From Bacteroidales bacterium (lineage in GTDB: Bacteria; Bacteroidota; Bacteroidia; Bacteroidales; UBA4417), in NCBI GenBank assembly GCA_038237165.1, contig JBBRYZ010000004.1:1-58243 (forward strand): 58,243 nucleotides of DNA. The letters run 5' to 3'. Shown one piece after another: positions 6,804-34,980 of this stretch (within the stretch, counting starts at the first letter, position 1; every line of letters begins with the position of its first letter). The notes under the pieces are model-generated. The model had not been told where the DNA came from, made no database searches, and saw nothing but the letters and a program-made list of their open reading frames with translations. The position numbers and the translations under genes are program-made.

Positions 6804-6821
6804 GATTCCTGGATTTTTAAA

Positions 6822-8396
6822 TTAATTATTCACTTCTGTTGTTTCGGTTGAAGGCTGAACTTCATCGGGACCTTTTTTAATCTGGGTTGTCATAATCTTG
6901 ATTTCGGCGATAAGCAAACCTGTAAAAATAACAAAGAACATCCAGAAAGTGATTTGTACCGAAGCCGGTTTAAGTTGCGAAACAGCGGCAATGGTTGGAA
7001 GAATATCCTGGATTACCCATGGTTGACGGCCTACTTCGGCAACAACCCAACCCAGTTCCGAGGCGATGTATGCCAGCGGAATACTCCACAAAGCTGTATA
7101 AAGGATGAACCGTTTTTTAGCAATTTTATCCTTTAAAGTTAACAGCAATACTACCAGGAATAAAAGTCCGAAATGGAAACCCAAACCTACCATAATCCTG
7201 AACGAATAAAAGGTAGTCGGAACGCTTGGAATCAGCTCCTGCATATTGCGACCAGCGTAATACCCATAGCCAAAATGTTTATAGTTTTCCTCAAATTTTA
7301 CCAGGGCTGTCTTTGCCAGGGTATCATTTCCGGCTTTTTTAGCATTTTTATAATCAGCCAGCGAAGTAATTGCAATCTTTCCTTTCTCGCTACGTTCCCT
7401 GAAGGAAATAATATTGCGTTCAGGATTGCCATACACTATATCACGGATACCGGGAACATAAGCGTTGGGATCGAGAAAAGCCATATACGACAACATGTTG
7501 GGAATCTCGAACATGAACCTGAAATTCTGTTTTTTGTGTGAAGATTCCCTAACATCTTCCTGTAAAATCCCGATGGCAACCAGAGGCGCATTCTGCCTTC
7601 CGATATAAAGATTTTCCATGGAAGCAAATTTCATAGGCTGGTATTTTGCCATATTCCGGGCTGAGCCGTCGCCGGTTAATATCACAAAAGCAGTGGTTAC
7701 CAATCCGAATGTGGCCGCCACAATAATGCTTCTTTTGGCAAATAAATGTTCGCGGTTTTTAAGTAAATACCATGCGCTTACACCCATTACGAAAACCGAA
7801 GCCATTACAAATCCTGACGAAATGGTGTGAAGAAATTTATTGATAGCAACAGGCGAAAACAGGACTTCCCAGAAATCAGCCATTTCGTTACGGGCAGTAT
7901 CGGGATTAAATTTCATACCAACCGGATTCTGCATCCATGCATTAGCAACCAATATCCATAGTGCCGATAAGTTTGAGCCGATTGCTACCAGCCAGGTCGA
8001 AAGCAGGTGAAATTTCTTGCTTACCTTATTCCAGCCAAAGAACATTACGGCAATAAAAGTGCTTTCGAGGAAAAATGCCATAATGCCTTCGATAGCCAGC
8101 GGAGCGCCGAAAATATCGCCGACAAACCAGGAATAGTTTGACCAGTTGGTTCCAAATTCGAATTCGAGGATAATGCCGGTTGCTACACCGATGGCGAAGT
8201 TGATCCCAAAAATTGTCATCCAGAATTTTGTAATTCGCTTCCATTCGGGATTGCCGGTTTTTACGTACAAGGTCTCCATGAAGGCAACAATAAAAGAAAG
8301 GCCTAGCGTGAGCGGCACAAACAACCAGTGATATAAGGCTGTGAGTGCGAATTGTGCCCTCGACCAATCAACGAGCGAAAAGTCAATATGTTCCAT
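6822..8396 (-). CDS. cydA: Cytochrome bd ubiquinol oxidase subunit I
   Basis: RAQFALTALYHWLFVP, FEFGTNWS, QPMKFASME Q-loop, EVGRQPW. Confidence 0.97.
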   Translation of the reverse strand: MEHIDFSLVDWSRAQFALTALYHWLFVPLTLGLSFIVAFMETLYVKTGNPEWKRITKFWMTIFGINFAIGVATGIILEFEFGTNWSNYSWFVGDIFGAPLAIEGIMAFFLESTFIAVMFFGWNKVSKKFHLLSTWLVAIGSNLSALWILVANAWMQNPVGMKFNPDTARNEMADFWEVLFSPVAINKFLHTISSGFVMASVFVMGVSAWYLLKNREHLFAKRSIIVAATFGLVTTAFVILTGDGSARNMAKYQPMKFASMENLYIGRQNAPLVAIGILQEDVRESSHKKQNFRFMFEIPNMLSYMAFLDPNAYVPGIRDIVYGNPERNIISFRERSEKGKIAITSLADYKNAKKAGNDTLAKTALVKFEENYKHFGYGYYAGRNMQELIPSVPTTFYSFRIMVGLGFHFGLLFLVVLLLTLKDKIAKKRFILYTALWSIPLAYIASELGWVVAEVGRQPWVIQDILPTIAAVSQLKPASVQITFWMFFVIFTGLLIAEIKIMTTQIKKGPDEVQPSTETTEVNN

Positions 8397-12275: not shown

Positions 12276-14756
12276 CTAGAAATCAAAATTCATTGAAAAC
12301 ATCAATCCGAATTTTTTAGTATTGGGGTGATCGTTGTAAGAAAGTCGCCATACACCGTCAATCCGAAGGAAACGGAAAATATTTTCGATACCAACGCCTG
12401 CTTCCATGTATGGTTTGGTGATAAAGTAAGCGCCTGTTGGTAATTGATTATACGATTGATTATCGGCTGAGGTAGCGCCATATGTACCTTTAAACTGAAC
12501 CACTTCGCGCCATTTCAGCTTACGCATCACCGGAATGCGGTTCAGGAACAAGCCTTCCATATGATAAATCAGGTGATAGGAAACATATTCATCAGCAATA
12601 AACTCGTAATAGTTCATGAGGTTAAATGCATAATCATCATGATAAAAAGTTTCGTTTCCAGGCAATATTTTCATCAATGGGAATGGCAGTTTGCCCCATA
12701 CTTTTCCGCCTTCGATATTGTATTTCAGCCAGCCAGCCGACAGGAAACTGAACCATTGCGAAACATTGGCAGTTACGCTACTGTATTTATACTCACCATT
12801 AAACACATCTTTAATTCCGCGCGCATATTGCAGGTTGAATATAGGGAAAGGCGTACTTACTACAGTACGCTCGAACTCTCCTGCCAATTGCTTTTCGCGA
12901 AAACCATAATGCAAGCCAAAAGCCAGTTCGGTAGTGGTTAAATGCTTGGTGGGCACATAATCCAGCACAATAGAACCATTAATCGTGGAAATCTGTCTTT
13001 TGGTTACTGTAATGGTATTTGAAAACCCGGTAAACCATTCGTGTTTGTAGGATGCCTTGTATTGGGTAACCAAGGTAAGTTTATCCTGGGGATTCCGGCG
13101 AAAAAGCGAATTAAGGATAAAATCCTGCCTGAAAGCATTATTTGACATTCCCAATTGCTCCACATCATACTTATAGGAAGCGCTCAGTACGCGATCGGGA
13201 ACCTTGCCCAGCATGTACATAAAACCTGCGCTGTACTTGAATTTTTCATCGCGTGCTCCGTATGCAACATAGCCATTGAGCATCAACCGTGTTGAAAAAT
13301 CATTGCTGGTGCGTCCCCCTATTCTGAAACGGCTGCCTTCAGTCTGGTTATAACTGTAGGTTGAGGAATAAGGCCCCCATTCAAAATTGCCTTTTACATA
13401 ATATCCGGTAACTAACATTTTGATAATGTCAACATAGGTTCTGAAAAGAGGCATCTGTTTCAGCGTATCGCTAAGGCGATAAATCGAAGCTTCACGGTGC
13501 GTAAGCTCTTCAGGTCGCGATTTTTTCCAGAATTCGTCATTTTTAAGGTTAGCATCTTCCAATACTATGATATTGCTGGGCATAGAGTAGATTTTTTCAT
13601 CGCGCACAGGCGCAAAATCATACCCGGAATACATCACAGTGCGCGTACCAAAAAAGCCCATGGTAATTTTGGAATCTACTATTACATTAAAATCGGCGAT
13701 AACCTGTTCGCGGTTGAGCATCCATTGTCCGTTGTTTGTTAAGCCGAATTCCTGTGATATCATCATGTCATTCACAAAGTTGAGATTAACATCTCCTGCC
13801 ATCCGCATTTCCAGTTTTTTAACGGCATAGGTAGTATCATGTATCCACATGTTGCCTGTAAATGCAAGTTCCTGCTTGCGCCGAGGCTTGAACATCACAT
13901 TATAGCACCAGTTGTTGTCAATAAAAGTTGAATCGATAAGGTAATATTTGTAATACAACAGACCCATGTTAGAAATTGGGCTGACAAAATTCTTTTGAAA
14001 AAGGCTGATGAAATTGTCATAGATTTTAATATCCTGAGCCATATTACCTACAAACTGCGACATAGTCGGGTTTTCGACACCCGATATCTGCGTGGCTTTA
14101 ATAATCTCCTTCCTTTCCCTTGGTGTCTTTCGGAAATACAAATCCGAGAAAGCTTCAGAAATCATCACCGGAAGGTATACTTTTCCGTTTACTACGCTGG
14201 TATCGATCTGATTAAAAATAAATTTGAACGGCTCGAGTACGCGACGGTTTTGAAATTTCTCGCTGAGATTATTTACATCAAACTGCATTTTAGTGTATGC
14301 CTGGCAATGAAAGGATTCTATTTTATCAGGATCATTCTGAGGTTTGTGATCTATTATTTTTCGCAGCAACACCTCGGCAGGATTCTCTCCTGGTCGGATA
14401 ACTACTCCTGATAATTCATATCTTTCGGGCTGCAATCGTATGTCGACAGTCTGAAAACGGTTGCGCTGTATCGCGATATTACTGGTAACAAAACCAATAT
14501 AAGAAGCAACAATTGTATCGGTTGCTTTGCGCGATTCAAGAGAAAATTTACCATCAAAGCCTGTAGTTGTGCCGATCTGAGTATTTTTAAAATATACGCT
14601 GACAAATGGCAGTGTATCACCGGTTTGTGCATCCCGGACGATTCCCATGATTTTTGTCAGATCTTGGGCATTACTATGCATTGAGAAGCCTGATGCTAAA
14701 AAGAGCAAAAGGGAAATACGACTGATTATATATTTTACTGAAAATATTCTATTCAT
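12276..14756 (-). CDS. Outer-membrane protein with carboxypeptidase-regulatory-like N domain and DUF5686 barrel
   Basis: Signal peptide; GIVRDAQTGDTLPFVSV..GTTTGFDGKF..SYIGF; C-terminal PYMEAGVGIENIF...FDF; start set to the ATG at 14756. Confidence 0.8.
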   Translation of the reverse strand: MNRIFSVKYIISRISLLLFLASGFSMHSNAQDLTKIMGIVRDAQTGDTLPFVSVYFKNTQIGTTTGFDGKFSLESRKATDTIVASYIGFVTSNIAIQRNRFQTVDIRLQPERYELSGVVIRPGENPAEVLLRKIIDHKPQNDPDKIESFHCQAYTKMQFDVNNLSEKFQNRRVLEPFKFIFNQIDTSVVNGKVYLPVMISEAFSDLYFRKTPRERKEIIKATQISGVENPTMSQFVGNMAQDIKIYDNFISLFQKNFVSPISNMGLLYYKYYLIDSTFIDNNWCYNVMFKPRRKQELAFTGNMWIHDTTYAVKKLEMRMAGDVNLNFVNDMMISQEFGLTNNGQWMLNREQVIADFNVIVDSKITMGFFGTRTVMYSGYDFAPVRDEKIYSMPSNIIVLEDANLKNDEFWKKSRPEELTHREASIYRLSDTLKQMPLFRTYVDIIKMLVTGYYVKGNFEWGPYSSTYSYNQTEGSRFRIGGRTSNDFSTRLMLNGYVAYGARDEKFKYSAGFMYMLGKVPDRVLSASYKYDVEQLGMSNNAFRQDFILNSLFRRNPQDKLTLVTQYKASYKHEWFTGFSNTITVTKRQISTINGSIVLDYVPTKHLTTTELAFGLHYGFREKQLAGEFERTVVSTPFPIFNLQYARGIKDVFNGEYKYSSVTANVSQWFSFLSAGWLKYNIEGGKVWGKLPFPLMKILPGNETFYHDDYAFNLMNYYEFIADEYVSYHLIYHMEGLFLNRIPVMRKLKWREVVQFKGTYGATSADNQSYNQLPTGAYFITKPYMEAGVGIENIFRFLRIDGVWRLSYNDHPNTKKFGLMFSMNFDF

Positions 14757-14921
14757 ACGTTTAAGTCCGGTCAAAAGCCATGCCACAATTATTAATAAGA
14801 CAGTCAACTGGCCTGGAACAGGTTATAAAGCTCTGAAATACAATTCAATAACTGACTTTCCCGTTCGAGGGCTCAGTACCTGGAAGTGATAAATCCCGAC
14901 ATTCCAACAGATATCCTGCTT

Positions 14922-15263
14922 TTAGCTCTGCAAATCATCCCAAAATTCGACGGCTCTTCGCATATGAGGAACAACTATAGTTCCGCCAACGAGGGTTGCT
15001 ATTCCGAAAACTTCAAAAAGTTCTTCTTCCGAAACATTATTTTCCTTGCATTGCAACAGGTGATATTTAACACAATCGTCGCAACGCAAAACCATAGAAG
15101 CAACAAGTCCCATTAGCTCCTTGGTCTTTACAGGCAATGCTCCGTCAGTATATGCGTTGGTATCTACATTGAAAATACGTTTCACTACCTTATTATCAAC
15201 CGAAAGAATGCGATCATTCATCTTGCTTCGGTATTCATTGAACTGTTCCAGTTTTTCGCCCAT
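14922..15263 (-). CDS. Carboxymuconolactone decarboxylase / AhpD-like family protein
   Basis: GALPVKTKELMGL...RCDDCVKYH (CxxC-x3-H). Confidence 0.85.
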   Translation of the reverse strand: MGEKLEQFNEYRSKMNDRILSVDNKVVKRIFNVDTNAYTDGALPVKTKELMGLVASMVLRCDDCVKYHLLQCKENNVSEEELFEVFGIATLVGGTIVVPHMRRAVEFWDDLQS

Positions 15264-15476
15264 TTTTACTGCTTGTGTGTATTGATTAATAAGAAATTAC
15301 CCTAATAGTAATAGCTGTCAGGTTTTAAGATAATCCGGAATTAGTTAAATCATAGAAAGCTAGCTCTGATTATTGAGTTCTGAGTGCAAAGATAGAAAGA
15401 AAATGGAGGCTGTGGATTTCTCCACATGGTGCTATAGAGCCCGCAATGTTAAATTTTCAGAATATGAGGAGATGGA

Positions 15477-15549
15477 TCCCGATAGCTATCGGGACGGAAG
15501 ACGGAAGTCGGAAGACAGAAGTCGGAAGTCAGAAGACGGAAGTCAGAAG
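15477..15549. repeat. 18-bp perfect palindrome followed by a heptamer tandem array
   Basis: TCCCGATAGCTATCGGGA (15477-15494), then about 8 copies of C(G/A)GAAG(A/T). Confidence 0.85.
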
Positions 15550-15559
15550 AAAAGGGTTT

Positions 15560-16357
15560 TTAATAACTCCCTTTCGATGCGGTGCCGGTAATTATAGCAA
15601 CACTGGCTCCGCAACCGAGGCGGTTTGCGCCTGCATTGATCATGGCAATTGCCTGATCGTATGTTTTGATACCTCCGCTTGCTTTCACACCCATTTTGGA
15701 GCCAACAATCCGACGCATCAAAGCGATATCTGGAACCGTTGCGCCGCTTCCGGCAAAACCGGTGCTGGTTTTCACAAAGTCGGCATCAGCCTTTTTGGCA
15801 ATTTCGCAGGCAATTATTTTTTCGGCTTCTGTCAGCAAACCTGTTTCGAGGATCACTTTTAAAACAGTTGTGCTTCTGCAAGCTCTTTTTATTGCCCTGA
15901 TATCTTCTTCAACCAGTTTCAGATTACCTGATTTCAATGCGCCAACATTAATCACCATATCCAGTTCAGTGGCACCGCTTGCAATGGCACTCCGGGCTTC
16001 GAAAGCTTTGCTTCGCGTGTCCATTCCGCCTAAGGGAAATCCAATAACCGAGCATATCTCTATACCTGTGCCTCGGAGTTTTTTTGCTACAAAAGGAACC
16101 CACGATGAATTAACACAAACGGATTTGAATTTATAGACAACGGCTTCGTTACAGAGTTGCTCAAACTGCGATTCTACAGCTTCGGGTTTTAAAAGGGTGT
16201 GATCAATATATCCTGCAAGTTCGGTTTGCGACATACGGTTTGTGGCAGGCTGAAACTGTGACTTAGCCTGATCGCCGACTCCCTGCGATGCTGTCTTTTC
16301 ATTAAGCCGTTGCAGAACTTCTTTGGTAATTTTATCGATTAATTCATTCTTTTCCAT
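15560..16357 (-). CDS. deoC: Deoxyribose-phosphate aldolase with N-terminal encapsulation peptide
   Basis: IDHTLLKP, ELDMVIN, DFVKTSTGF (Schiff-base Lys), GVKASGGI; extra N-terminal helix ELIDKITKEVLQRL plus a linker. Confidence 0.93.
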   Translation of the reverse strand: MEKNELIDKITKEVLQRLNEKTASQGVGDQAKSQFQPATNRMSQTELAGYIDHTLLKPEAVESQFEQLCNEAVVYKFKSVCVNSSWVPFVAKKLRGTGIEICSVIGFPLGGMDTRSKAFEARSAIASGATELDMVINVGALKSGNLKLVEEDIRAIKRACRSTTVLKVILETGLLTEAEKIIACEIAKKADADFVKTSTGFAGSGATVPDIALMRRIVGSKMGVKASGGIKTYDQAIAMINAGANRLGCGASVAIITGTASKGSY

Positions 16358-16358
16358 C

Positions 16359-16829
16359 TTACTTTCCTTCTCTTTCTATTGACATCATTTTATTTATACG
16401 TGGCCAGTGCCTGCCGCCTTCGAACCTGGTTTTAAGCCACAAAGCGGCCATTACACAAATATCTTCAGGTTTATGCTGTGCAGTACCCATGGTGAGGACA
16501 TTGGCATTATTGTGTTCGCGGCTGTTAACAATGGTTTGCTCACTCCAGCAAAGCGCTGCACGAATACCATGAATTTTGTTACAAACCATGGAAGAACCAA
16601 TTCCGGCGGCATCGAGCATTATTCCGCGGTCGCAATCGCCGCTTACTACTTTGCGGCAAACAGCCTGTGCAAAATCAGGATAATCAACTTTTTCCTTGCT
16701 GTTGAATGTACCGACATCAACCACAGTATAACCGACGGTGCGAAGGTATGCCCTGAGCAATTCCTTCGTATCAAAAGAACCATGATCGGCGCCTATGGCA
16801 ATTTTCCTAACCTGGTCGGCAGTATTCAT
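16359..16829 (-). CDS. rpiB: RpiB/LacA/LacB family sugar-phosphate isomerase
   Basis: GADHG, DYPDFA, SREHNNAN, FEGGRH; start set to the ATG at 16829. Confidence 0.85.
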   Translation of the reverse strand: MNTADQVRKIAIGADHGSFDTKELLRAYLRTVGYTVVDVGTFNSKEKVDYPDFAQAVCRKVVSGDCDRGIMLDAAGIGSSMVCNKIHGIRAALCWSEQTIVNSREHNNANVLTMGTAQHKPEDICVMAALWLKTRFEGGRHWPRINKMMSIEREGK

Positions 16830-16903
16830 TAAATATCCTTTTTTTGAATTCCTTAAATTATACCTGTAAATCCGGTTTCTCATGTGATTTTCCGCCTGCA
16901 AAA

Positions 16904-17173
16904 TTACACCGTTATCTGATCCACAATACCGGCAATCACAGCTTTTATTGTAAAAGTTTCAGGTTCTTCGAGAATCATCCTTGCTGAACCGCCTTCTTCG
17001 AGGACCAGAACAGTATTTCCAATGCCCGCCTGAACGGTATCCACAGCCAGGAATGACGGACCTTTCGGTTGCCCGGAAGGATCCACAGGCTGTACGATCA
17101 GGATCTTCCTGGAATCGTATCCTTTTTCCTTTACAGTGGAAACTACATTGCCAATTATCTTTGCAAGAATCAT
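16904..17173 (-). CDS. BMC vertex pentamer (BMC-P, EutN/CcmL family)
   Basis: MILAKIIGNVVSTVK...AVDTVQAGIG...IAGIVD. Confidence 0.92.
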   Translation of the reverse strand: MILAKIIGNVVSTVKEKGYDSRKILIVQPVDPSGQPKGPSFLAVDTVQAGIGNTVLVLEEGGSARMILEEPETFTIKAVIAGIVDQITV

Positions 17174-17445
17174 TTTTTGCCCTCCACTAAAATTGTATCT
17201 ACAATACCTACTATAGCTGCATCACAAGGATTCATGGTGAATTCGAGTACGCGGCCGGCTTCTTTGCTGGTTTCGTAATAAATGAGATCGCCAACCCCAG
17301 CTTGAATGGTATCAAATGCAACAATAGGATCGCCGACTTTATTCAACTTTTCATCCAGAGGTTGCACCAGCATAAGTTTGATCCCTTCGAAGGATTCCAC
17401 TTTATGAGTACTGACGACCCTGCCGGTTATTTTGCCTAGTTTCAT
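17170..17445 (-). CDS. BMC vertex pentamer (BMC-P, EutN/CcmL family)
   Basis: MKLGKITGRVVSTHK...AFDTIQAGVGD...DAAIVGIVD. Confidence 0.92.
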   Translation of the reverse strand: MKLGKITGRVVSTHKVESFEGIKLMLVQPLDEKLNKVGDPIVAFDTIQAGVGDLIYYETSKEAGRVLEFTMNPCDAAIVGIVDTILVEGKK

Positions 17446-17452
17446 TTTTTAT

Positions 17453-17623
17453 TAGTTAATGGAAAATGGGGAAATAGTTAATAGTTAACAGAAAATGGTT
17501 AATAGTTCTTTGGTGTTGCATTAACAATGCTCTTTATTTCCAATCCTGTTATTTGCTTTTTTGATATCTGCTGAAATAAAACTTAAATGCAGACTTTTTT
17601 CTTTTAACTTTTAACTATTAACT
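17453..17623. repeat. Heptamer tracts in inverted orientation inside the BMC operon
   Basis: tagttaa/tggaaaa/tggttaa units at about 17453-17507; complementary ttaactt ttaacta ttaact at about 17604-17623. Confidence 0.6.
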
Positions 17624-17631
17624 CTTCCTTC

Positions 17632-19047
17632 CTAGATAATCCTGAAATAATCCACAAGCGTACACCGTCTTTCCCTTGTAAACGTCCTTGCGCGGGTGAC
17701 ACCTTCGCCGGTTGGACTGGCGATTGTAAACGAAGCAAAGCCTGCGCCGCCATGGCCAAGGCCTGCATAGCTGGGGCCGTTTTTTATAAATAATGAGCAG
17801 TTCATCACTTTAGCCATTTTGCTGAGTTTGGCAATATTCATCGAGTGCATGATTGCTGTATGCCGGAAGCCATGCTCTACTTCAACGGCAAGATCGATGG
17901 CAGTATCAACATCTTTAACTCTCACCAAAGGCATAACCGGCATAAGTTGCTCTGTCCAGAGCAAAGGATGTTCCCTTCCGACCTCGCAAAGCAACAGTCT
18001 GGTTGACGGTGGAACTGTTAGTCCGATCTGGGATGCAATGAAATCAGCATTTTTGCCTACAAAACTCTTATTGGCGGCACCTTCCTTTCCGGGACCACCG
18101 GGATCGGCAATCACGAGTTCGGTGATCTTTTTTATCTGATCCTCGTTAAGTTCGTAAGCGCCATTTTTTTTCATTTCTTCTTTAAGCCTGTCGGCGACGG
18201 AAGCAACTACGATGATTTCTTTTTCGCAGATGCAGATCACGTTGTTATCAAAGCTGGCTCCATCAACTATATGTTTTCCTGCTTTTGCCAAATCGGCTGT
18301 TTCATCCACCACACAGGGAGGATTTCCCGGACCGGCAGCAATTGCTTTTTTACCGCTGTTCATGGCAACTTTTACAACAGCCGGTCCTCCGGTTACAACC
18401 AGAATGGCAATTTTGGGATGTGCCATCAGGGTTTTTGCCGATTCGATGGTAGGATCGGAAATACAACAAACCAGGTTTGAAGGACCACCACATTCGGTAA
18501 TGGCTTTATTCATCAAGCTGACCAGAAAAGCTGAGCACTTTTTAGCAGCCGGATGTGGATTGAAAACTACAGAATTACCTCCGGCTATCATTCCAATGGC
18601 GTTGCTGATAATAGATACCGTTGGATTTGTGCTTGGCGTAATGGCACCAATTACACCGTAAGGAGCTCTTTCGACCAGCGTCAGCCCGTTATCATCCGAA
18701 AAGGCTTCAGGAATAACGTCTTCAGTACCGGGAGTTTTAGCTATTCCCAGCTCATTTTTAATAACTTTATCTTCCCAACGGCCCATACCGGTTTCTTCCC
18801 AGGCCATTTTCGATATAATTTCTTTATTGGTAAAGCAGACTTTCCTGATATTTTCGATGATATCTTTGCGTTTTTCCAACGTAAGCAAACCCAACTCCCT
18901 GAATGCCACAGCAGCGGCATCAATGGCCGATTGAATATCGGAAAATACACCTGTAGTTTTGCTTTCGTTATCCTTGGGCAGGTTCAGATCCATGCCGTTT
19001 ATAACTTCTTCTATGATCTGCCTGACACTTTTTTCCAGATTGTCCAT
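17632..19047 (-). CDS. CoA-acylating aldehyde dehydrogenase (EutE/PduP family) with encapsulation peptide
   Basis: PSTNPT, TGGPAVV, AGPGNPP, SFDNNVICICEKE, TIASPTGEG; N-terminal helix LEKSVRQIIEEVINGM. Confidence 0.93.
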   Translation of the reverse strand: MDNLEKSVRQIIEEVINGMDLNLPKDNESKTTGVFSDIQSAIDAAAVAFRELGLLTLEKRKDIIENIRKVCFTNKEIISKMAWEETGMGRWEDKVIKNELGIAKTPGTEDVIPEAFSDDNGLTLVERAPYGVIGAITPSTNPTVSIISNAIGMIAGGNSVVFNPHPAAKKCSAFLVSLMNKAITECGGPSNLVCCISDPTIESAKTLMAHPKIAILVVTGGPAVVKVAMNSGKKAIAAGPGNPPCVVDETADLAKAGKHIVDGASFDNNVICICEKEIIVVASVADRLKEEMKKNGAYELNEDQIKKITELVIADPGGPGKEGAANKSFVGKNADFIASQIGLTVPPSTRLLLCEVGREHPLLWTEQLMPVMPLVRVKDVDTAIDLAVEVEHGFRHTAIMHSMNIAKLSKMAKVMNCSLFIKNGPSYAGLGHGGAGFASFTIASPTGEGVTRARTFTRERRCTLVDYFRII

Positions 19048-19056
19048 ATTTATAAG

Positions 19057-19611
19057 TTATTGCATGAAATAAGGCTTTGTTTCTATATGCGGTTGCGGAA
19101 TAAGGGTGGCCATACATAACTGGTTTTTCGATTTTGCCTTTGCGGTGCCCGCTTCCATCGCAGCCTGAACAGCGTCAAGGCTTCCAATCATTTTCACATA
19201 CGATTTGCCGCCGAATCCGATGGCCAGCCTCACTTCAATAATTTTAACCCCTCCTACCTTGGCTGCCGTATCAGCTGCTTCGATACCCGAAACAACCGAC
19301 AGCGTTTCTATGATTCCGATCGCATTCCATTCGTCAGTGATAATTATTTTACCTATTGCAACCAACGCCTCCGGATGTATCATAGGGAGAAACAAACTAT
19401 CTACAATAAGTTGCTTGCCGGTTTCATAGCCCTTGTTAAACGAATATTCAACCGAAGCCACATCGCCGCTGAATACAATCAGGTATTTGCCGGGGCACAT
19501 GGTTCTTGCTTCGATAATTTTAACAGGCGCAACTTTTACCATTTCGTCCAGCGCCAGAATGCCAATGGCTATGCTGCTGAATTCCAATGCTCCCAACGCG
19601 ATTATTTCCAC
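19057..19611 (-). CDS. BMC-T single-layer trimer, PduT-like
   Basis: Tandem BMC domains; MCPGKY pore Cys; IRLAIGFGGKS-type second domain (EVRLAIGFGGKS). Confidence 0.88.
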   Translation of the reverse strand: MEIIALGALEFSSIAIGILALDEMVKVAPVKIIEARTMCPGKYLIVFSGDVASVEYSFNKGYETGKQLIVDSLFLPMIHPEALVAIGKIIITDEWNAIGIIETLSVVSGIEAADTAAKVGGVKIIEVRLAIGFGGKSYVKMIGSLDAVQAAMEAGTAKAKSKNQLCMATLIPQPHIETKPYFMQ

Positions 19612-19620
19612 ACTATACCT

Positions 19621-19908
19621 CTACTTCCTGTAAACAACTGTATCGTTTTCATCAATCATGTCGATAATACCGACAATCAAAGCATCCACCGGCTTGCTGA
19701 CGGTGAGAAGCGTTTCCCGTGCCGGGCTGCCTTCGGTAACCATGACAATTTCGCCGTTAGCGGCACCGATAATATCAAGTGCAACAATGTAATCGCCTTT
19801 CTGTGTCCCGTACTGATCGGTTTTATCAACCAAAAGATAGCGCGAACCTGCCATACCATCATTAATGGTGCTGCTTACGATGGTTCCTACTACTTTAGCC
19901 AGTATCAT
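19621..19908 (-). CDS. BMC vertex pentamer (BMC-P, EutN/CcmL family)
   Basis: MILAKVVGTIVSS...ALDIIGAANGE...VDALIVGIID. Confidence 0.92.
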   Translation of the reverse strand: MILAKVVGTIVSSTINDGMAGSRYLLVDKTDQYGTQKGDYIVALDIIGAANGEIVMVTEGSPARETLLTVSKPVDALIVGIIDMIDENDTVVYRK

Positions 19909-19911
19909 AAC

Positions 19912-20208
19912 CTAACTGTTTTTCCGATAAGTATATTCGCCATCCTTTTCGATATTATCGACAATAGCAATGATGGCTGAATCGGATGGCTTGCCTTCGG
20001 TAACTCCCGTCATCCGGGCGCTGCTGCCTGAAACATAGAAAACTATTTCGCCAATTCCGGCACCCACGCTATCCATTGAAACAACAAAGTCATTCTTCCC
20101 TTTCATGGTCACCGGATCGATTTTTTCGACAAGTAAAAATCTGATCCCTTCAATTTTCGGGGATTTATGACTTGAAACTACGGTTCCTACTACCCTTGCC
20201 AATATCAT
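19912..20208 (-). CDS. BMC vertex pentamer (BMC-P, EutN/CcmL family)
   Basis: MILARVVGTVVSSHK...DSVGAGIGE...SGSSAR...DSAIIAIVD. Confidence 0.93.
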   Translation of the reverse strand: MILARVVGTVVSSHKSPKIEGIRFLLVEKIDPVTMKGKNDFVVSMDSVGAGIGEIVFYVSGSSARMTGVTEGKPSDSAIIAIVDNIEKDGEYTYRKNS

Positions 20209-20289
20209 GATGATTCCGGTTAATGATTTATTCTTCCGGCTACAGTTTAAGCTGCGCCGTTGGATTAGACTGTTGTACTTACAGACAAA

Positions 20290-20592
20290 TTATTTCTTTG
20301 CATTTCCTCTGCCAAGTGGCAAAGCACTGTCAACATTAGCGTGTGGCCTTGGAATAATATGCGATGAGATTATTTCACCTACTTTTTGTGCAGCCTGAAC
20401 ACCGGCATCCACAGCGGCTTTAACCGAAGCAACATCACCACGTACGATGGCAGTTACATAACCTCCACCGATTCTTTCGAAGCCTATCAATTCGACTTTT
20501 GCAGCTTTAACCATTGCATCCGAAGCTTCAACCATTGCAGCAAAGCCTTTGGTTTCTATCATTCCCAGTGCATCTGAAGTATTGTCATTCAT
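20290..20592 (-). CDS. BMC-H shell hexamer (EutM/PduA family)
   Basis: [33 protein letters not shown]. Confidence 0.95.
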
Positions 20593-20624
20593 AATTTTAT
20601 ATCTTTTAGATTTGTGATTACTGA

Positions 20625-21245
20625 TTAATATTCTTCCCTGCCAGTGATTTCGGCCAGGCGTTTTTCAACAATTTTCTTAGCTTCCAGAACTTCGGCTTCG
20701 TCGCCGGCGATATATACCCTTCCGAATTTCCCAAATCCTACTACCTCAATGATGTTGATATGAGCGGTTTTTTCGGCTTCGTTTGCAGCATAATATGCAT
20801 ATCCGGCAGGCTCAACTTCCAATACAAACAAGGTATCGCCTTTCAGGATCATATTGCCGTGGCGGGTTCTGTTGATTAACTGAGCATGATGATCCTCCAC
20901 GTTCTTTATCAGCTGGCTGGTAAGAATCCTGGGTTTGATGCGGTCGGTTTCCGATTTTTCGATAGTTCTTAGCACCGTTTCCCCGGCCACGCGTGTGTCG
21001 CCCTGGCTGTCGGAGTGAACTTCGAGCATACCATAAGCCCGTTCAACAATCTGCATACCGGGAGTTACATTGGTTGCCTTAAGGGCGATATCGGTAAGTG
21101 TATTGATTTCGATGCCCGGCGCAATTTCGATAATGCAGCAAGCCTGTCCGCTCACCGGCAGGTAACCTTTCGAAACGGTGGATAAATAAGAAGCCATCTG
21201 CAATTGCAGGGAATCAATAAAAATATAGGTTCTGAGGTCTATCAT
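20625..21245 (-). CDS. BMC-T permuted double-stacking trimer (CcmP-like, BMC-Tdp)
   Basis: [48 protein letters not shown]. Confidence 0.85.
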
Positions 21246-21247
21246 GG

Positions 21248-21556
21248 TTATTTGCCTTTTTTAGGTTGTTTCACACTCAATGGAAGCGCGCTATCCACAT
21301 TCGGATGAGGTCTGGGTATGATGTGGGTAGATATAATTTCGCCCACTTTTTGTGCGGCCTGTACACCGGCATCTACAGCGGCTCTAACTGCTGCTACATC
21401 GCCACGGACAATAGCGGTAACATAACCACCGCCAATCTTTTCGAAGCCGATAAGTTCGACCTTAGCAGCTTTTACCATGGCGTCAGAAGCCTCGACCATG
21501 GCTACGAATCCTTTGGTTTCAATCATCCCAAGGGCGCTCATTTCATCATTTGCCAT
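21248..21556 (-). CDS. BMC-H shell hexamer (EutM/PduA family)
   Basis: [33 protein letters not shown]; near-duplicate of 20290-20592. Confidence 0.95.
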
Positions 21557-21689
21557 AATTTGTTTTATTAATAGTTTTCAGATCGTACGGTTGCTCCCCA
21601 TAATATCGATCATTCTATTTGTATAACTGATGTACCAGAGGAACTCTAAATTTCTACATTTAATAAATCGCAACCTGAAATATGTAAGT

Positions 21690-21725
21690 TGCAACCATTT
21701 GCATATAATTCTTGCTGCAAATATA
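21690..21725 (-). promoter_or_regulatory. BMC operon promoter (-7 element) with a downstream LacI-like operator
   Basis: TATATTTG on the minus strand at 21718-21725; dyad TGCAACCATTTGCA at 21690-21703. Confidence 0.55.
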
Positions 21726-22378
21726 TCTCTTTTTTAATCGCTGCAACTTTTTTTATGTCACCAATGGCCTGTGCCGTCCAGGTGGTTTAGTATTCAAAAT
21801 CAAGATGATTGCAAAGCTGGAAAGCCAAATCCGAATGGAACCAATGCGGATTTTAGTCCGAAATTAAAAAAAATATTTAAAATGCTGATTGTTTTGATTT
21901 TAATTTTACTTTTGCACGCTTTTTGAATCAACTGCCTGTAAATTTGGAAACTGTTAATCAGAGCATTTGATATTTACAAAAAATGCCGGATCAGGCTAAA
22001 AAAAATGCTATTAAGTACTTTTTTGCTAAATATTAATCTGTCATAAAAATTTTAACCGGTTGTTTTAGTGCTTGTTATATGACTTGCTTTAAAATAATTT
22101 CGTTGTTGTTAGATTTTTTTTCGGATAAACGTCAAAATTGTATTAACTTTACTTAACACATTGGCAATCGACAATTATCTGACACACTGTCAGTAGATTT
22201 TTACCATGATCAAAATTCTTTTGCATCAGGGATAACGGGAAGCCAACAAACAAAGATCTAGGTGAGACAATTTTAATTTAAAAGTGCAGTCTATTTCCCG
22301 TTAATTAATTTAATCAGGATCAACACCGTCATAACATGCATCTTAAATTGATGCTTATACATGAATAATGCTCGTGGA

Positions 22379-24586
22379 ATGAAAAAGAATGATGAATTCA
22401 AAGATTATCCTTTGCAAACCGTACTTAAAAAGATATTCGGCTTTGAAAATTTTAAAGGAAATCAGGAACCAATAATACGTAATTTACTTGCCGGCAACGA
22501 TACTTTTGTAATCATGCCTACCGGCGGTGGCAAATCGATGTGCTACCAGTTGCCGGCCATGATTCTGCCTGGTACTGCGATAGTTATATCTCCTCTTATC
22601 TCGCTGATGAAAAACCAGGTGGATGCCATGCGTCAATTTGGCGCTGATATAGGCATTGCTCATGTACTGAACTCATCTCTTTCGAAAAACGAGATTACTC
22701 AGGTAAAGGCAGATTTAACGAACGGAGTAACAAAATTGCTGTATGTCGCACCTGAGTCACTTACAAAGGAGGAAAACATAGCTTTTTTCAGAGACATAAA
22801 GATTTCGTTTTATGCCATTGATGAGGCGCACTGTATTTCGGAATGGGGACATGATTTCAGACCTGAATACCGGAGACTGCGTCCGATAATTGATGCCATA
22901 GGACAAGATGTGCCTGTGCTTGCATTAACAGCAACTGCAACGCCAAAAGTTCAGCAGGATATTTTAAAGAGCCTCGGCATGCAGGAAGCCGCACTTTACA
23001 AATCATCGTTCAACCGCTCAAACCTTTATTATGAAGTGCGACAGAAAAATGATGATGTAAATAAAGAAGTGATTCGTTTCATTAAGATGCATATGGGCAA
23101 ATCAGGTATTATTTATTGCCTGAGCCGCCGACAAGTGGAAGAGCTTTCGGAAACCCTGGTTGTAAACGGAATTAAAGCTTTGCCCTACCATGCAGGTCTC
23201 GATTCGGCGGTACGTGTCGAAAACCAGGATAAATTCCTGATGGAAGAATCGGATGTGATAGTTGCTACTATTGCTTTCGGGATGGGAATTGATAAGCCGG
23301 ACGTGCGTTTCGTGATACATTACGACATGCCTAAGAGCCTCGAAGGCTACTACCAGGAAACAGGCCGCTCGGGCCGTGATGACGGAGAAGGAATCTGCCT
23401 GGCATTTTACGCTTACGAGGATATAGAGAAACTTGAAAAATTCAGCAAGAATAAAGGCGTTGCCGAACAGGAAATTGCCAATCAACTGCTGATGGAAGTG
23501 GTATCTTTTGCCGAATCAGCCATGTGCCGCCGCAAGCAACTGCTGCACTATTTTGGCGAAGTTTATTCTGAGGATAATTGCGGAAACTGCGATAACTGTC
23601 TGCACCCAAAAACTCTGATCGACGGACGTGAATACGTTGATCTCGCCCTGGAAGCCGTGCTGGCTACTAAACAACTCTGCAAAGCCAAGCATATCGTAAA
23701 TATTATGATAGGCAAGGTTTCGTCGAACATCAAATCTTACAAACATAATGAGCTCGATATTTTCGGCAAGGGAATGGAAGAAAGCGAGCATTTCTGGGAT
23801 GGAGTGCTGAGGCAGATGCTGATCGAAAGGCTTGTTGTAAAAGACATTGAGAATTACGGTATTCTCAAGATCACTCCCGAAGGGCAGAAGTTTCTGAAAA
23901 AGCCTTATGCTGTAATGGTGGCTAAAGATACCGATCCCGAGGAAGGAGAGGACGACGAAATGATGGCCGGAGGCGGAGCACGCACCAGCACAACCGATAA
24001 AACACTTTTTTCACTTTTAAAAGATCTCCGCAAGGAAATTGCACGCAAAGAAAGTCTGCCACCATTTGTTATTTTCCAGGATCCATCGCTCGAAGATATG
24101 GCGATACAGTATCCTATCACAATGGACGAATTACAGCGCATCACAGGCGTAGGAGCGGGAAAAGCGCAAAAATACGGAAAGCCATTTCTGGAACTTATTG
24201 CTTCGTATGTCGAAGAGAATGAGATTATCCGCCCGATGGATATGGTGGTGAAATCGGTGGTTAACAAGTCGGGGCTTAAAGTATATATCATTACTAATAT
24301 AGACCGCAAAATTTCGCTCGAAGACATTGCCACTGCAAAAAACCTTACTTCCGACGAACTGTTGACCGAGGTTGAAAGCATTGTAGATTCGGGCACAAAA
24401 ATTGACCTTTCCTATTACCTGAAGGAAACCATCGATCCATACCATATGGAGGAGATCATTGAGTATTTTATGGAGGCTGAAACTGATTCTGTTGAGCAGG
24501 CGTTGAGAGATCTGGGCGAAAATGAGTTTACAGAGGAGGAAATCAGACTGGTGCGCATTAAATACATTTCGGAAGTTGGCAATTAA
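22379..24586 (+). CDS. recQ: ATP-dependent DNA helicase RecQ (Bacteroidota type, with RQC and HRDC domains)
   Basis: MPTGGGKS, DEAHCISEWGHDFRP, YYQETGRSGRD, CRR...CGNCDNC; alternative start at 22361. Confidence 0.95.
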   Translation: MKKNDEFKDYPLQTVLKKIFGFENFKGNQEPIIRNLLAGNDTFVIMPTGGGKSMCYQLPAMILPGTAIVISPLISLMKNQVDAMRQFGADIGIAHVLNSSLSKNEITQVKADLTNGVTKLLYVAPESLTKEENIAFFRDIKISFYAIDEAHCISEWGHDFRPEYRRLRPIIDAIGQDVPVLALTATATPKVQQDILKSLGMQEAALYKSSFNRSNLYYEVRQKNDDVNKEVIRFIKMHMGKSGIIYCLSRRQVEELSETLVVNGIKALPYHAGLDSAVRVENQDKFLMEESDVIVATIAFGMGIDKPDVRFVIHYDMPKSLEGYYQETGRSGRDDGEGICLAFYAYEDIEKLEKFSKNKGVAEQEIANQLLMEVVSFAESAMCRRKQLLHYFGEVYSEDNCGNCDNCLHPKTLIDGREYVDLALEAVLATKQLCKAKHIVNIMIGKVSSNIKSYKHNELDIFGKGMEESEHFWDGVLRQMLIERLVVKDIENYGILKITPEGQKFLKKPYAVMVAKDTDPEEGEDDEMMAGGGARTSTTDKTLFSLLKDLRKEIARKESLPPFVIFQDPSLEDMAIQYPITMDELQRITGVGAGKAQKYGKPFLELIASYVEENEIIRPMDMVVKSVVNKSGLKVYIITNIDRKISLEDIATAKNLTSDELLTEVESIVDSGTKIDLSYYLKETIDPYHMEEIIEYFMEAETDSVEQALRDLGENEFTEEEIRLVRIKYISEVGN

Positions 24587-26153: not shown

Positions 26154-26582
26154 TTATTGTTTGTTGGCGGTAGCGTCGTGTGAATCAAAATTAGCGCCGG
26201 CAGTAATTGAAAAAGTCCAGTTCATGATGGTTTCGTCTGAATTAGCAAATTTACCATTCCCATCTACTTTCCAGTTATTACTCATTGTCTGGGATGAGAC
26301 AACTAACTGGGATGAAGTAACTATACCTTTTGCACTAATGCTATTTGAGCCTGAATTTCCAAAATTCCCGAGTATCACCTGGCTGGAGTTGTTCGGATCT
26401 TTGGTAATAGTTACAATATAACTCTGATTTTCAGTACTTTTAGTGGTTTCATAAAACTGCCATTGTCCAATATACGGATCACGAGGGTCGCCATTGGTTG
26501 TATTGTCAACAGGTTCGCAGGCCGATATCAATAAAATGGTTAATGCTGCTAAAAAGACGGAGAAATTAATTACAGTTTTCAT
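26154..26582 (-). CDS. Hypothetical lipoprotein
   Basis: Lipobox LISAC followed by acidic residues; DPRDPYIGQW; beta-rich; start set to the ATG at 26582. Confidence 0.75.
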   Translation of the reverse strand: MKTVINFSVFLAALTILLISACEPVDNTTNGDPRDPYIGQWQFYETTKSTENQSYIVTITKDPNNSSQVILGNFGNSGSNSISAKGIVTSSQLVVSSQTMSNNWKVDGNGKFANSDETIMNWTFSITAGANFDSHDATANKQ

Positions 26583-26669
26583 AGGTATAAGTTTTTGACT
26601 GTGCCGCAAAATTAAGATTTACTTTTATGTAATTGCTATAAAAGATATCACATTTGTCTGGCTAATAAA

Positions 26670-27107: not shown

Positions 27108-28553
27108 TTAAGCATGGCTGCAATCGCATATTTTTTCGGTGTTCTGAATAAAGAAACGCTTTGCATCTTTTGGGAATTCGTGACTGCATGGACCGGAAAT
27201 GCAACCACCTTCGCAGGCCATAACTTCGATCAACTGGCTTTCTGCTGATTTAGCTTTTGCATAGGACGAAAGCAATCTCATCTGTTTCCTATCCAATCCA
27301 TTAAACACTTTTGAGGAAATGGTTATGCCAGCAACTGACTCCACTGCTGCCGCAACACCTCCCGAGAGGCAATAATTCCGCGAATGTTGATCCACACTTT
27401 CGTTAAGCGGCCGGTTTTCACATTCTACAACTGAAATTCCCCAAGCGTTGAAAAGGCAAGCCAGTTCTTCGAAAGTCATTACCCAGTCAATATCAGGATT
27501 ATTGCGACCCTCGTTTCTTTTAGCAATACAGGGACCAATAAAAACCACCGGTCCGGAAGGAAATTGTGCCTTGCACATCTTTGCAGAAATAGCCATAGGC
27601 GAAGGCGTATCTGATACATACGGCAGAATTTCAGGTATATGTTTTTGTGCCGCCATCACCCACGAAGGGCAGCAGGAAGTTGTCATAAACGCCTGCCCCG
27701 AATCCAGTTTATGAATAAGCTCTTCCGATTCGAGCCGGGTTGTGATTGAGGCACCTTCGGCAACTTCGGCCACATGAGTAAATCCAAGTTTGTATAAAGC
27801 GTCCAATACGGCTCCCGGTTCAGCCCTGAATTGTCCGAATATGGAAGGTGCAACTATTGCCGTTATTGGCTTCCTTTGTTTTAGCCTGGCCATGATTTCG
27901 AACAATTCTGTTGTTTCAAAAATCGATCCGAAAGGACAAGCATTCACACATTTTCCGCAAAGGATACATTTTTCCGCGTTAATCTTTTCAATTCCATTTT
28001 CATCCTTCGAAATAGCACCTACCGGGCATGATTCCTCACAGGGAACCGGCATGTAAATTATGGAATGGTACGGACACAAATCCTTGCAGATACCGCAATT
28101 CACACAAGTTGAAGGATCAATTATTGCCTTGCCTTCGCTGGTGCGTGAAATCGCTTTTTTAGGACAATTGTTCATACAGGACTGTGCAACACAGCCTTTG
28201 CATAAGTTGGTTATCACATAATTTGCTTTTACGCACGAGGTGCAAGCTTCGTCAACCACGGTGAGGAAACCAGCAGGCCGGTCTTTCCTGTTTATCGTCT
28301 TCTCAGCATAAAATGCAAGCGAGTCGAGTTCATCAATTTCATCTTCCCGTCCAAAACCAAGGATAGCCATTATTTTATACTTTACAACAGCTCTCATTTT
28401 ATAAACACAGCAACGTTCGTGTCCGCTCAACCGCCTGCTTATCTCCAAAGGAATGCGATCAATTTGCTCAAAAAGCTGATCATCTTTATATAATTCGGCC
28501 ATGCGGGTTATTAAATCGCGGCGGATTATCATCACATTATTTACAAATGCCAT
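27108..28553 (-). CDS. Monomeric [FeFe] hydrogenase, group B-like, with ferredoxin-type 4Fe-4S domains
   Basis: H-cluster motifs TTSCCPSW, GPCIAKRNE, EVMACEGGCISGP; CVNCGICKDLCP and CILCGKCVNACP. Confidence 0.9.
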   Translation of the reverse strand: MAFVNNVMIIRRDLITRMAELYKDDQLFEQIDRIPLEISRRLSGHERCCVYKMRAVVKYKIMAILGFGREDEIDELDSLAFYAEKTINRKDRPAGFLTVVDEACTSCVKANYVITNLCKGCVAQSCMNNCPKKAISRTSEGKAIIDPSTCVNCGICKDLCPYHSIIYMPVPCEESCPVGAISKDENGIEKINAEKCILCGKCVNACPFGSIFETTELFEIMARLKQRKPITAIVAPSIFGQFRAEPGAVLDALYKLGFTHVAEVAEGASITTRLESEELIHKLDSGQAFMTTSCCPSWVMAAQKHIPEILPYVSDTPSPMAISAKMCKAQFPSGPVVFIGPCIAKRNEGRNNPDIDWVMTFEELACLFNAWGISVVECENRPLNESVDQHSRNYCLSGGVAAAVESVAGITISSKVFNGLDRKQMRLLSSYAKAKSAESQLIEVMACEGGCISGPCSHEFPKDAKRFFIQNTEKICDCSHA

Positions 28554-28650
28554 AAAACAGTTTTATTTTGCAAAATGAGAAGTAGATGAAAACCAGATTT
28601 TAGTGTTTGGTTATTGACAGCGAACTCAAATTTCTAAAATCAGATCATAA

Positions 28651-28696
28651 CCTGTCCCATCCGTAACCGATATTACAGTTTGGGGAAAGGGACAGG
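28651..28696 (-). other. Intergenic stem-loop between adhE and the hydrogenase gene
   Basis: CCTGTCCC ... GGGACAGG 8-bp GC-rich arms about 30 bp after the adhE stop; no clear U tract. Confidence 0.5.
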
Positions 28697-28727
28697 AATG
28701 AGATTAAAAAGTATTTAAAGGAGAGTT

Positions 28728-31379: not shown

Positions 31380-31399
31380 TGTAGTTCTATATTTTAAAA

Positions 31400-31666
31400 T
31401 TAGCTTACTGTTTGTTTTTCGAGCGAATACAGGTATTCTATTATTTTTTCCTGCGATGCCTGTGGAATCAGTTTCCCGTCGATTTCCACATAAGGCGGCA
31501 TGGGTTTACTTTTCAGCAAATCGCATCCTAAGCATACGGCGGCTTCCACATATACTTTATCTTTCAGGTCTTCGGGAAGATGATCCTTGATGTCCTTAAG
31601 TTCATGATTTCCCATTACATAGCATTGAGTTCCAACGCAGATTTTCAATTTTAACTTCTTTTCCAT
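31400..31666 (-). CDS. Thioredoxin-like [2Fe-2S] ferredoxin (NuoE-like)
   Basis: ICVGTQC...CLGC...PPYVEIDG. Confidence 0.8.
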   Translation of the reverse strand: MEKKLKLKICVGTQCYVMGNHELKDIKDHLPEDLKDKVYVEAAVCLGCDLLKSKPMPPYVEIDGKLIPQASQEKIIEYLYSLEKQTVS

Positions 31667-31677
31667 TTTCGTAATTT

Positions 31678-32865: not shown

Positions 32866-32866
32866 T

Positions 32867-34594: not shown

Positions 34595-34626
34595 GGCAGA
34601 GTTGTTATCAGCGAAAGCGTAAATAG

Positions 34627-34923: not shown

Positions 34924-34959
34924 TGTCTTTGAAATTTGATGATCAATTAAGATCATCTA

Positions 34960-34977
34960 TTGTTATTTGATTAACAA
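34960..34977. promoter_or_regulatory. Rex-type operator
   Basis: TTGTTATTTGATTAACAA, one mismatch from TTGTTAA-N4-TTAACAA; the dyad extends to TATTGTTA/TAACAATA. Confidence 0.65.
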
Positions 34978-34980
34978 TAA

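Follow-up and report, generated by a model that had tools for sequence, protein, structure and literature searches.

An SPU-type microcompartment operon without cofactor-recycling genes in a Bacteroidales genome

The DNA analysed here, called the window throughout, is a stretch of 58,243 nucleotides from a Bacteroidales bacterium (contig JBBRYZ010000004.1 of assembly GCA_038237165.1), and it carries an operon for a bacterial microcompartment (BMC) of the sugar-phosphate-utilising (SPU) type. Eleven contiguous, closely packed and intact open reading frames (ORFs) run from 21556 to 15560 on the minus strand, eight of them for shell proteins and one each for a CoA-acylating aldehyde dehydrogenase (AldDH), an RpiB-like protein (RPI) and a deoxyribose-phosphate aldolase (DERA), the signature enzyme. 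The initial annotation of this DNA had given exactly this inventory with every gene correctly placed, and the E-values for the families of the operon genes rule out chance. It had also reported that the operon has no alcohol dehydrogenase (AlcDH), PduL or acetate kinase (AckA); Pfam and NCBIfam searches bear this out, as do the intergenic gaps, which are too small to hold such a gene. A regulator gene is likewise missing within the operon. Judged by its sequence, the locus is a genuine, complete SPU-type operon similar to subtypes SPU2 and SPU3, and a minimal form, without PduS, of a well-described class.

The shell set, contained within 6 kb, consists of two hexamer proteins (BMC-H), two trimer proteins (BMC-T) and four pentamer proteins (BMC-P). 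First in the direction of transcription is BMC-H 1 (21248-21556; 102 aa; PF00936, E 1e-30), with which BMC-H 2 (20290-20592; 100 aa; PF00936, E 3.2e-31) is identical at 83 of 100 aligned residues. Between the two lies the gene for a CcmP-like double-stacking trimer protein, BMC-T(dp) (20625-21245; 206 aa), which is weak in Pfam as a tandem BMC protein (1.1e-05) and scores 280.5 bits (E 8e-84) with the NCBIfam CcmP model. Its best solved relatives are 5v76 (E 4.2e-69), which we take to be a Haliangium ochraceum protein, and CcmP (5lsr/4ht5; E 1.8e-66). The V-E-R stretch of its pore is kept in all 19 aligned rows, and the Glu-Arg pair within it presumably has a gating role. The four vertex proteins, BMC-P 1 (19912-20208; 98 aa; PF03319, E 9.1e-24), BMC-P 2 (19621-19908; 95 aa; E 1.3e-24), BMC-P 3 (17170-17445; 91 aa; E 4.1e-26) and BMC-P 4 (16904-17173; 89 aa; E 1.5e-24), share 35-49% mutual identity and include the BMC-P triplet by which SPU loci are recognised, a criterion taken from the main text of Dwyer, Sutter and Kerfeld 2024 (PMC11585597). 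That these proteins assemble into an actual shell is something we infer from the gene content.

The second trimer protein, BMC-T(s) (19057-19611; 184 aa; two PF00936 domains, E 1.4e-38), is PduT-like (PduT model, E 4e-34; solved relatives 3nwg and PduT 3pac/3n79). Its residues 39-42 read CPGK, the Cys being aligned to the Fe-S pore Cys of PduT. According to the main text of Sutter et al. (PNAS 2024; PMC11626177), a CP(G/S)K pore motif defines BMC-T(SE), and a PduT-like trimer bearing it regenerates NAD+ together with PduS (MNdh); the trimer cysteine is conserved only beside MNdh, the co-occurrence being strict 'but not vice versa'. In the window, no PduS/MNdh gene adjoins the PduT-like gene, and no gene of any kind lies between BMC-P 2 and BMC-T(s). 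The window holds only the shell half of the MNdh/BMC-T(SE) module: it shares the pore motif with such modules and, unlike them, has no MNdh in either the locus or the genome.

All three enzymes are encoded on the same strand as the shell proteins. DERA (15560-16357; 265 aa) scores 279.8 bits with the TIGR00126 deoC model, whose cut-off is 117.3, and is matched by solved DERAs at E 1.4e-77 (8qps) and about 60% identity. The solved proteins align from residue 46 only, leaving an N-terminal extension of 45 residues. D133, K167 and K196, which we equated with D102, K167 and K201 of Escherichia coli by motif rather than by alignment to the E. coli chain, do not vary in any of the 17 rows and are the same in the solved DERAs. 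An AlphaFold2 model (mean pLDDT 86.6) has a helix at residues 3-24, a disordered segment at 21-39 and a barrel with pLDDT above 90; the helix is amphipathic and has a conserved sequence throughout the 17 aligned SPU DERAs, and we regard it as the encapsulation peptide. This is the sole DeoC in the genome. AldDH (17632-19047; 471 aa) reaches 677 bits with PRK15398 against a cut-off of 403. Among solved structures it is closest to the BMC aldehyde dehydrogenases 5jfl (E 8.6e-150) and 4c3s, to which the Cys of the FDNN..C..EKE stretch aligns. It begins with an amphipathic helix that is conserved in relatives and has a hydrophobic moment (muH) of 0.70, equalled by none of 2000 shuffles, as befits an N-terminal encapsulation helix.

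RPI (16359-16901; PF02502 (LacAB_rpiB), E 1.8e-47) has an uncertain start, at TTG 16901, ATG 16883 or ATG 16829. Compared with the solved RpiB 3ph3, it has Asp-Ala-Ala in place of Cys-Gly-Thr. All 16 BMC-linked RPIs have this Asp at the position of the catalytic Cys, whereas the other RpiB of the genome (contig C10) has the Cys. In the alignment of 17 rows formed by these 16 and the genome's own RpiB, pocket residues D33, H124, N125, R158 and R162 (window numbering) are invariant throughout, and only the Cys and the neighbouring Thr of the pocket vary. The RPI N-terminus is short and basic in the Bacteroidota, that is, in the window and in related loci L014-L020, with a net charge of +7 over the first 30 residues. 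PduS-bearing loci of Spirochaetota and Atribacterota have an encapsulation-like helix at this place, which the PduS-less Spirochaetales loci L031 and L032 also lack. In another Bacteroidales locus, L021 (9467-10780, plus strand), RPI and DERA form a single 438-aa reading frame in which the targeting helix of DERA joins the two domains, an arrangement that fits the published DERA-RPI complex. A prediction of this complex from two alignments scored 0.11 against a mark of 0.32 and is not used as evidence.

The SPU class has a substantial published record. SPU loci were named as metabolosomes 'with an incomplete core' by Axen 2014 (PMC4207490); more than 280 of them, from 26 phyla and in seven subtypes, were counted by Sutter 2021 (PMC8217296), and 206 were curated by Dwyer 2024. 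As set out in the main text of the last of these papers (PMC11585597), the universal signature enzyme is a DERA extended at its N-terminus, all SPU RPIs have Asp for the catalytic Cys, and the AldDH encapsulation peptide is N-terminal and a PduS homologue is present in all subtypes but SPU6. Subtypes without a phosphotransacylase (PTAC) typically have a BMC-T(dp), a possible exit for acetyl-CoA, and the BMC-T(dp) proteins of SPU2 and SPU3 are CcmP-like. RPI-DERA fusions occur in SPU3 loci, with a chimera described from a Verrucomicrobia bacterium. An SPU6 DERA is active on deoxyribose 5-phosphate, while the assayed SPU6 RPI has negligible ribose-5-phosphate isomerase activity and yet forms a complex with DERA; its role is left open, with other sugar phosphates mentioned. 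The SPU typing of the initial annotation is confirmed by the BMC-P triplet, the deoC-type DERA with its extension, the AldDH with its N-terminal peptide and the Cys-to-Asp change in the RpiB-like protein. Its remark that the class has little experimental characterisation is outdated, since the SPU6 DERA/RPI pair has been assayed (PMC11585597).

Within this class, the window is most like the SPU2 and SPU3 loci, with which it shares the DERA extension, the Cys-to-Asp RPI, an acylating AldDH with an N-terminal peptide, at least three BMC-P genes, a BMC-T(s), a CcmP-like BMC-T(dp) and the lack of a PTAC; the fusion in the sister locus L021 is a further likeness to SPU3. It differs in its RPI N-terminus, which is not a typical encapsulation helix, and in PduS, a homologue of which is listed for those subtypes and is found neither in the window nor in 8 of 8 related Bacteroidota loci. 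As far as the main text of Dwyer 2024 describes the SPU loci, ours fits in every feature but PduS. The sole SPU enzymes assayed come from the SPU6 locus of Chloroflexi bacterium GWB2_54_36, which has the same DERA-RPI-AldDH core and a BMC-T(dp), lacks PduS, PTAC and AlcDH as the window does, and likewise combines kept DERA catalytic residues with an RPI bearing Asp. By the same main text (PMC11585597), SPU6 differs in a C-terminal AldDH peptide (N-terminal in the window), a DERA extension of about 70 residues (about 45 in the window), one BMC-H, a BMC-T(dp) of another clade and a GntR regulator, whereas the window has two BMC-H, a PduT-like BMC-T(s) and no regulator gene in the operon; the Chloroflexota loci also form a separate branch of our DERA tree. 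With the Pdu and Eut metabolosomes the window shares a BMC-H/T/P shell and an aldehyde-generating signature enzyme paired with an acylating AldDH that has an N-terminal targeting helix. Unlike them, it has no PduL/PTAC, alcohol dehydrogenase, B12 enzymes or PduB/EutL-type trimer, and carries a carboxysome-like CcmP-type trimer instead. Finally, the BMC-T(dp) has its best match in 5v76 ('Microcompartments protein'), with 5v74 (HO-5816) of the Haliangium ochraceum BMC next. The H. ochraceum locus (L040), which has DERA, RPI, AldDH, PduS and triosephosphate isomerase (TPI) near shell genes, differs in gene order and content and is a distant branch on the DERA tree.

The comparison set comprised 80 fetched loci with a DERA. 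The nearest, from a Lentimicrobiaceae metagenome-assembled genome, has 86% identity in DERA and up to 97% in the CcmP-like protein. Eight Bacteroidota loci have full flanks: seven of them (L014, L016-L021) share all 11 genes in the order of the window, and L015 has 10 of the 11, with no separate BMC-H 1 match; a further locus, L027, is a fragment at the end of a contig. The order holds across loci whose proteins are 50-97% identical, while the flanking genes, which are housekeeping genes, differ among the Bacteroidota loci. The same order, with a PduS homologue inserted between the second BMC-P gene and the PduT-like gene, is found in L023, L026 and L030 of Spirochaetota and Atribacterota, L026 carrying a TPI in addition; indeed, in related SPU loci of Spirochaetota, Atribacterota and Lentisphaerota the PduT-like gene adjoins a PduS homologue. 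A tblastn search with a PduS query matched 9 of the 80 loci and none of L014-L021. In a midpoint-rooted FastTree of 81 DERAs, the ten Bacteroidota rows and a PduS-bearing Victivallales locus form a clade (support 95), with the Atribacterota and Spirochaetota loci next. Since the Bacteroidota rows group with or next to PduS-bearing loci, loss of PduS in the Bacteroidota is the simplest reading of the tree, and we tentatively propose that the gene was lost in this clade.

The pore motif of the PduT-like protein follows a related pattern in 27 aligned rows, which are kin and do not count as independent events. The Cys is present in 9 of 9 PduS-bearing loci. Among the 18 rows with no PduS match in the fetched stretch it is kept only in the window and L014-L017; L018-L021 (for example L018, 5746-6294) have Ser-Ser in place of the Cys-Pro, and the remaining 9 have other residues at the Cys position, with some of their stretches cut by contig ends. 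This pattern repeats the published rule that links the cysteine to MNdh and appears to add a decay series to it.

The cofactor gap noted for the operon extends to the genome (4.22 Mb in 276 contigs, 88.85% complete), in which we found no PduL (PF06130), no PduS orthologue with the PduS of Spirochaetota locus L023 as the query, and no satellite shell genes, all BMC genes lying at this one locus. PduL was equally missing from 8 of 8 other Bacteroidota hosts and from all 45 genomes of the genus, 26 of which are at least 90% complete. Two weak matches to the PduS query in the genome itself (E 2.5e-4 and 3.9e-4) were rejected as orthologues. Strong matches in 3 of 8 Bacteroidota genomes (E 1e-43 to 9e-50) were also set aside, as an RnfC_N part lies upstream, which is the order of RnfC and not of PduS. 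An ordinary Pta is encoded on contig C80 and an ordinary AckA on C46. The only complete iron-containing alcohol dehydrogenase (Fe-ADH) in the genome is the bifunctional AdhE, 7 kb from the operon and beside a hydrogenase gene; it was considered as an encapsulated alcohol dehydrogenase and rejected, its N-terminus not being encapsulation-peptide-like. The initial annotation had reasoned that an encapsulated PduL and AlcDH encoded by satellite genes would close the gap. Our search for such enzymes found none, with the caveat that the short contig C263 carries another Fe-ADH whose N-terminal end is missing. The gap as such is a recognised question in the papers cited above (Axen 2014; Dwyer 2024; PMC11626177), and the main text of the last states that NAD+ regeneration in loci with neither NAD+ system 'has yet to be determined'.

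Among 401 sampled genomes of the phylum, 78 have BMC-domain genes. Apart from the genome of the window, the 77 with such genes are all labelled only 'same phylum', none of the matching genomes being labelled 'same class'; BMC-domain genes were found in 0 of 7 genomes of the same-order families f2-f6, and in 0 of 21 and 0 of 28 genomes of the large families f7 and f8. In the genus of the window, shell genes occur in 22 of 45 genomes (12 of the 26 that are at least 90% complete), and about half of its species have the operon, at a conserved chromosomal site. This site can be seen by comparison with the shell-negative genome G415, which has the order ABC ATPase, DUF5686, CMD, SIS/CBS gene, RecQ, OmpH, DUF4296, a gene for 142 aa, a thioredoxin-like type IX secretion system (T9SS) gene and an ordinary deoC. 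In the window, CMD and RecQ flank the operon, which occupies the position of the SIS/CBS gene, and no deoC follows the homologue (26154-26609) of the 142-aa gene.

A reciprocal pattern was found for DERA itself. DERA is present in 44 of the 45 genomes, as a single match in all but G432, and falls into two score classes. Among the 22 shell-positive genomes, the BMC-type DERA (about 280 bits) is the only kind in 20, and none has an intact ordinary-type one; the exceptions are G434 with no DERA, G435 with a fragment at a contig end, and G432 with a second copy interrupted by an internal stop. The 23 shell-negative genomes have the ordinary type (160-193 bits) in 22 cases, and only G439, which is 64% complete, has the BMC type alone. 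The second deoC match of G432, lower-scoring and near the end of contig C206 (L105, 1983-2306), is an ordinary deoC in decay or else foreign sequence, the genome having 6% contamination. Beyond the genus, 11 of 15 other SPU hosts, including 7 of 8 Bacteroidota, have only the BMC-type DERA. Thus, the encapsulated DERA appears to stand in for the cytosolic one, and since shell-positive genomes lack an ordinary DERA, the encapsulated enzyme would do the cytosolic enzyme's job, which supports deoxyribose 5-phosphate as its substrate. In the main text of Dwyer 2024 we came across no reference to the reciprocal pattern.

Taken together, it is quite likely that the 11 genes are one operon for a minimal, SPU2/SPU3-like SPU metabolosome that has no PduS/MNdh and would work as follows; the substrate and the cofactor route are what we infer from the gene content, the conserved features and the absence of recycling genes. 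Deoxyribose 5-phosphate would enter the shell through the Lys/Arg-flanked pores of the BMC-H proteins or through the gated CcmP-like trimer. Inside, the helix-tagged DERA, in company with the RpiB-like protein, would split it into glyceraldehyde 3-phosphate, which would leave, and acetaldehyde, which the encapsulated acylating AldDH would convert to acetyl-CoA with formation of NADH. As no PduL, AlcDH or PduS/MNdh is in the locus or was found in the genome, the cofactors would have to cross the shell: NAD+ and NADH, as well as CoA and acetyl-CoA, would do so most plausibly through the CcmP-like BMC-T(dp), and would be handled in the cytosol by Pta-AckA, AdhE and [FeFe] hydrogenase.

Several observations weigh against this proposal, and there are three other explanations of the locus. 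That NAD(H) and CoA esters cross the shell by way of BMC-T(dp) has been published as a hypothesis rather than measured, and the PduT-like protein keeps its Fe-S cysteine without the usual partner, which our model leaves unexplained. In the first of the other explanations, the cofactors are recycled internally by a satellite PduL, AlcDH or MNdh with an encapsulation peptide that the draft assembly has missed. Such an enzyme may exist elsewhere, given 276 contigs at 88.85% completeness and the Fe-ADH of contig C263, which is cut and has no N-terminus; an MNdh would make sense of the retained CPGK, and MNdh/BMC-T(SE) modules stand in satellite loci of some BMC types (PMC11626177, main text). We consider this improbable in view of the uniform lack of PduL in the genus and in the other Bacteroidota hosts, the RnfC order of the strong PduS-query matches, the lack of satellite shell genes and the N-terminus of AdhE. 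The supply of the substrate is a further difficulty. A canonical phosphopentomutase (DeoB; TIGR01696) was not found in the genome itself, has no match above the cut-off in 8 of 8 Bacteroidota relatives and is present in only 1 of 4 hosts from other phyla, and no pyrimidine-nucleoside phosphorylase (TIGR02644) was found in the genome either. A Bacteroides control genome is also without a DeoB match despite having DeoC. A second DERA copy is present in 4 of the 15 other SPU hosts, and the pattern in the genus may rest on few evolutionary events.

The missing DeoB and phosphorylase would be less puzzling if deoxyribose 5-phosphate were not the main substrate, RPI being instead an active isomerase of another sugar phosphate, and a different or additional compound were processed. 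The RPI pocket, invariant in 17 of 17 rows save the Cys and Thr, is conserved more than a pure scaffold needs, and the role of RPI is left open in the main text of Dwyer 2024, with its mention of other sugar phosphates. We give this little credence: the window DERA is far above the deoC equivalog cut-off and about 60% identical to solved DERAs, the assayed SPU6 DERA acts on deoxyribose 5-phosphate while its RPI has negligible isomerase activity (PMC11585597, main text), and species of the genus with the operon have no ordinary DERA, as would fit its task having moved into the shell. It is very unlikely, finally, that the operon is a horizontally acquired relic, unexpressed or no longer building a functional shell. 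Its patchy occurrence (22 of 45 genus genomes), the differing flanks among other Bacteroidota, the loss of PduS and the loss of the Fe-S cysteine in sister loci L018-L021 might be taken for decay, but all 11 ORFs are intact with their catalytic and targeting residues, gene order is conserved at 50-97% protein identity, and the window DERA is the sole genome copy, so that its loss of function would abolish the pathway.

A bolder extension of the proposed metabolosome, possible though on balance doubtful, is that the Bacteroidia SPU compartment is a naturally minimal metabolosome that has lost all internal recycling enzymes, with PduS/MNdh gone and neither PduL nor AlcDH present, and carries the cell's entire deoxyribose-phosphate catabolism, its DERA having taken over from the cytosolic one. 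The loci would then record the order of decay, from MNdh and Cys (Spirochaetota, Atribacterota, Lentisphaerota), through Cys only (the window and L014-L017), to neither (L018-L021). If this is true, exchange of NAD(H) and CoA by a gated, CcmP-like trimer is enough to keep a metabolosome working, and the orphan Fe-S trimer is either on its way out or has a role independent of its partner.

A search for sequencing runs listed 20 of DNA, of which one covers most of the stretch, and none of RNA. A candidate Bacteroidota-type -7 promoter box, TAnnTTTG, follows an A-rich run at 21718..21725 on the minus strand, 169 nt 5' of the first gene, as a consensus match only. The box recurs 83-179 nt 5' of the first shell gene in 6 of 8 upstream regions (the window, L014, L016, L017, L019 and L021) and is absent upstream of L018 and L020. 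A scan for sigma-70 and terminator consensus was no better than shuffles (19 promoter-like hits against 16.8 expected, and 5 terminator-like against 8.0), and no Rfam model matched 14500-22600 at E up to 1. Repeated GTTGCA boxes 5' of the operon were dropped as they are not kept in relatives, and a TetR gene that follows DERA in L015-L017 was rejected as a regulator because it is not conserved with the operon. The same holds for a CMD/AhpD-like gene with a CxxC motif (14922-15263, minus strand) as an operon member: it lies 297 bp 3' of DERA, a congener without the BMC has it at the corresponding site (74% identity), and in L014 it does not follow DERA.

The operon lies among genes of other kinds. 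On the minus strand, a monomeric [FeFe] hydrogenase (27108-28553) and the bifunctional AdhE (28728-31379) are followed by a SpoIIE-type phosphatase (31678-32865), a second [FeFe]-hydrogenase-like protein of sensory type with extra Fe-S domains (32867-34594) and a GAF/sigma-54 activator (35252-37258). This region, 27108-37258, about 6-16 kb from the operon, is a possible redox-sensing fermentation cluster. Subunits I and II of a cytochrome bd oxidase are encoded at 5631-8396 (minus strand) in a genome that otherwise looks fermentative, with its hydrogenases and AdhE, and the oxidase may serve oxygen detoxification. The window also carries genes for T9SS cargo, PorP/SprF, DUF5686 and DUF4296; the T9SS, DUF5686 and DUF4296 genes, like the Lentimicrobiaceae origin of the nearest locus, mark the host as one of the Bacteroidota. 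On the plus strand, an ORF of 5019 aa (37533-52592) presumably encodes a giant T9SS surface protein; the next gene noted, at 52673-53800, is for a PorP/SprF type IX secretion membrane protein.

For annotation, this is an ordinary locus, and its label is SPU-type BMC operon. Modestly new are the apparent loss of PduS at the level of a lineage with the cysteine retained, the conserved insertion site, and the reciprocal occurrence of encapsulated and ordinary DERA in one genus. Neither SPU loci in Bacteroidota nor displacement of a cytosolic DERA was found in the main texts of the papers cited; Bacteroidota SPU loci, and SPU2/3 loci without PduS as well, may already be recorded in supplementary locus tables, which would lower the novelty. 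The genus provides a clean natural comparison, in which close relatives have the operon at one site and no ordinary DERA, or the reverse. SPU compartments are, to our knowledge, among the most widespread microcompartment types, and we know of no native SPU compartment that has been studied. Such pairs of relatives, or transfer of the operon, could address whether encapsulation protects against acetaldehyde, whether cofactors cross the shell, and what role the RpiB-like protein plays.

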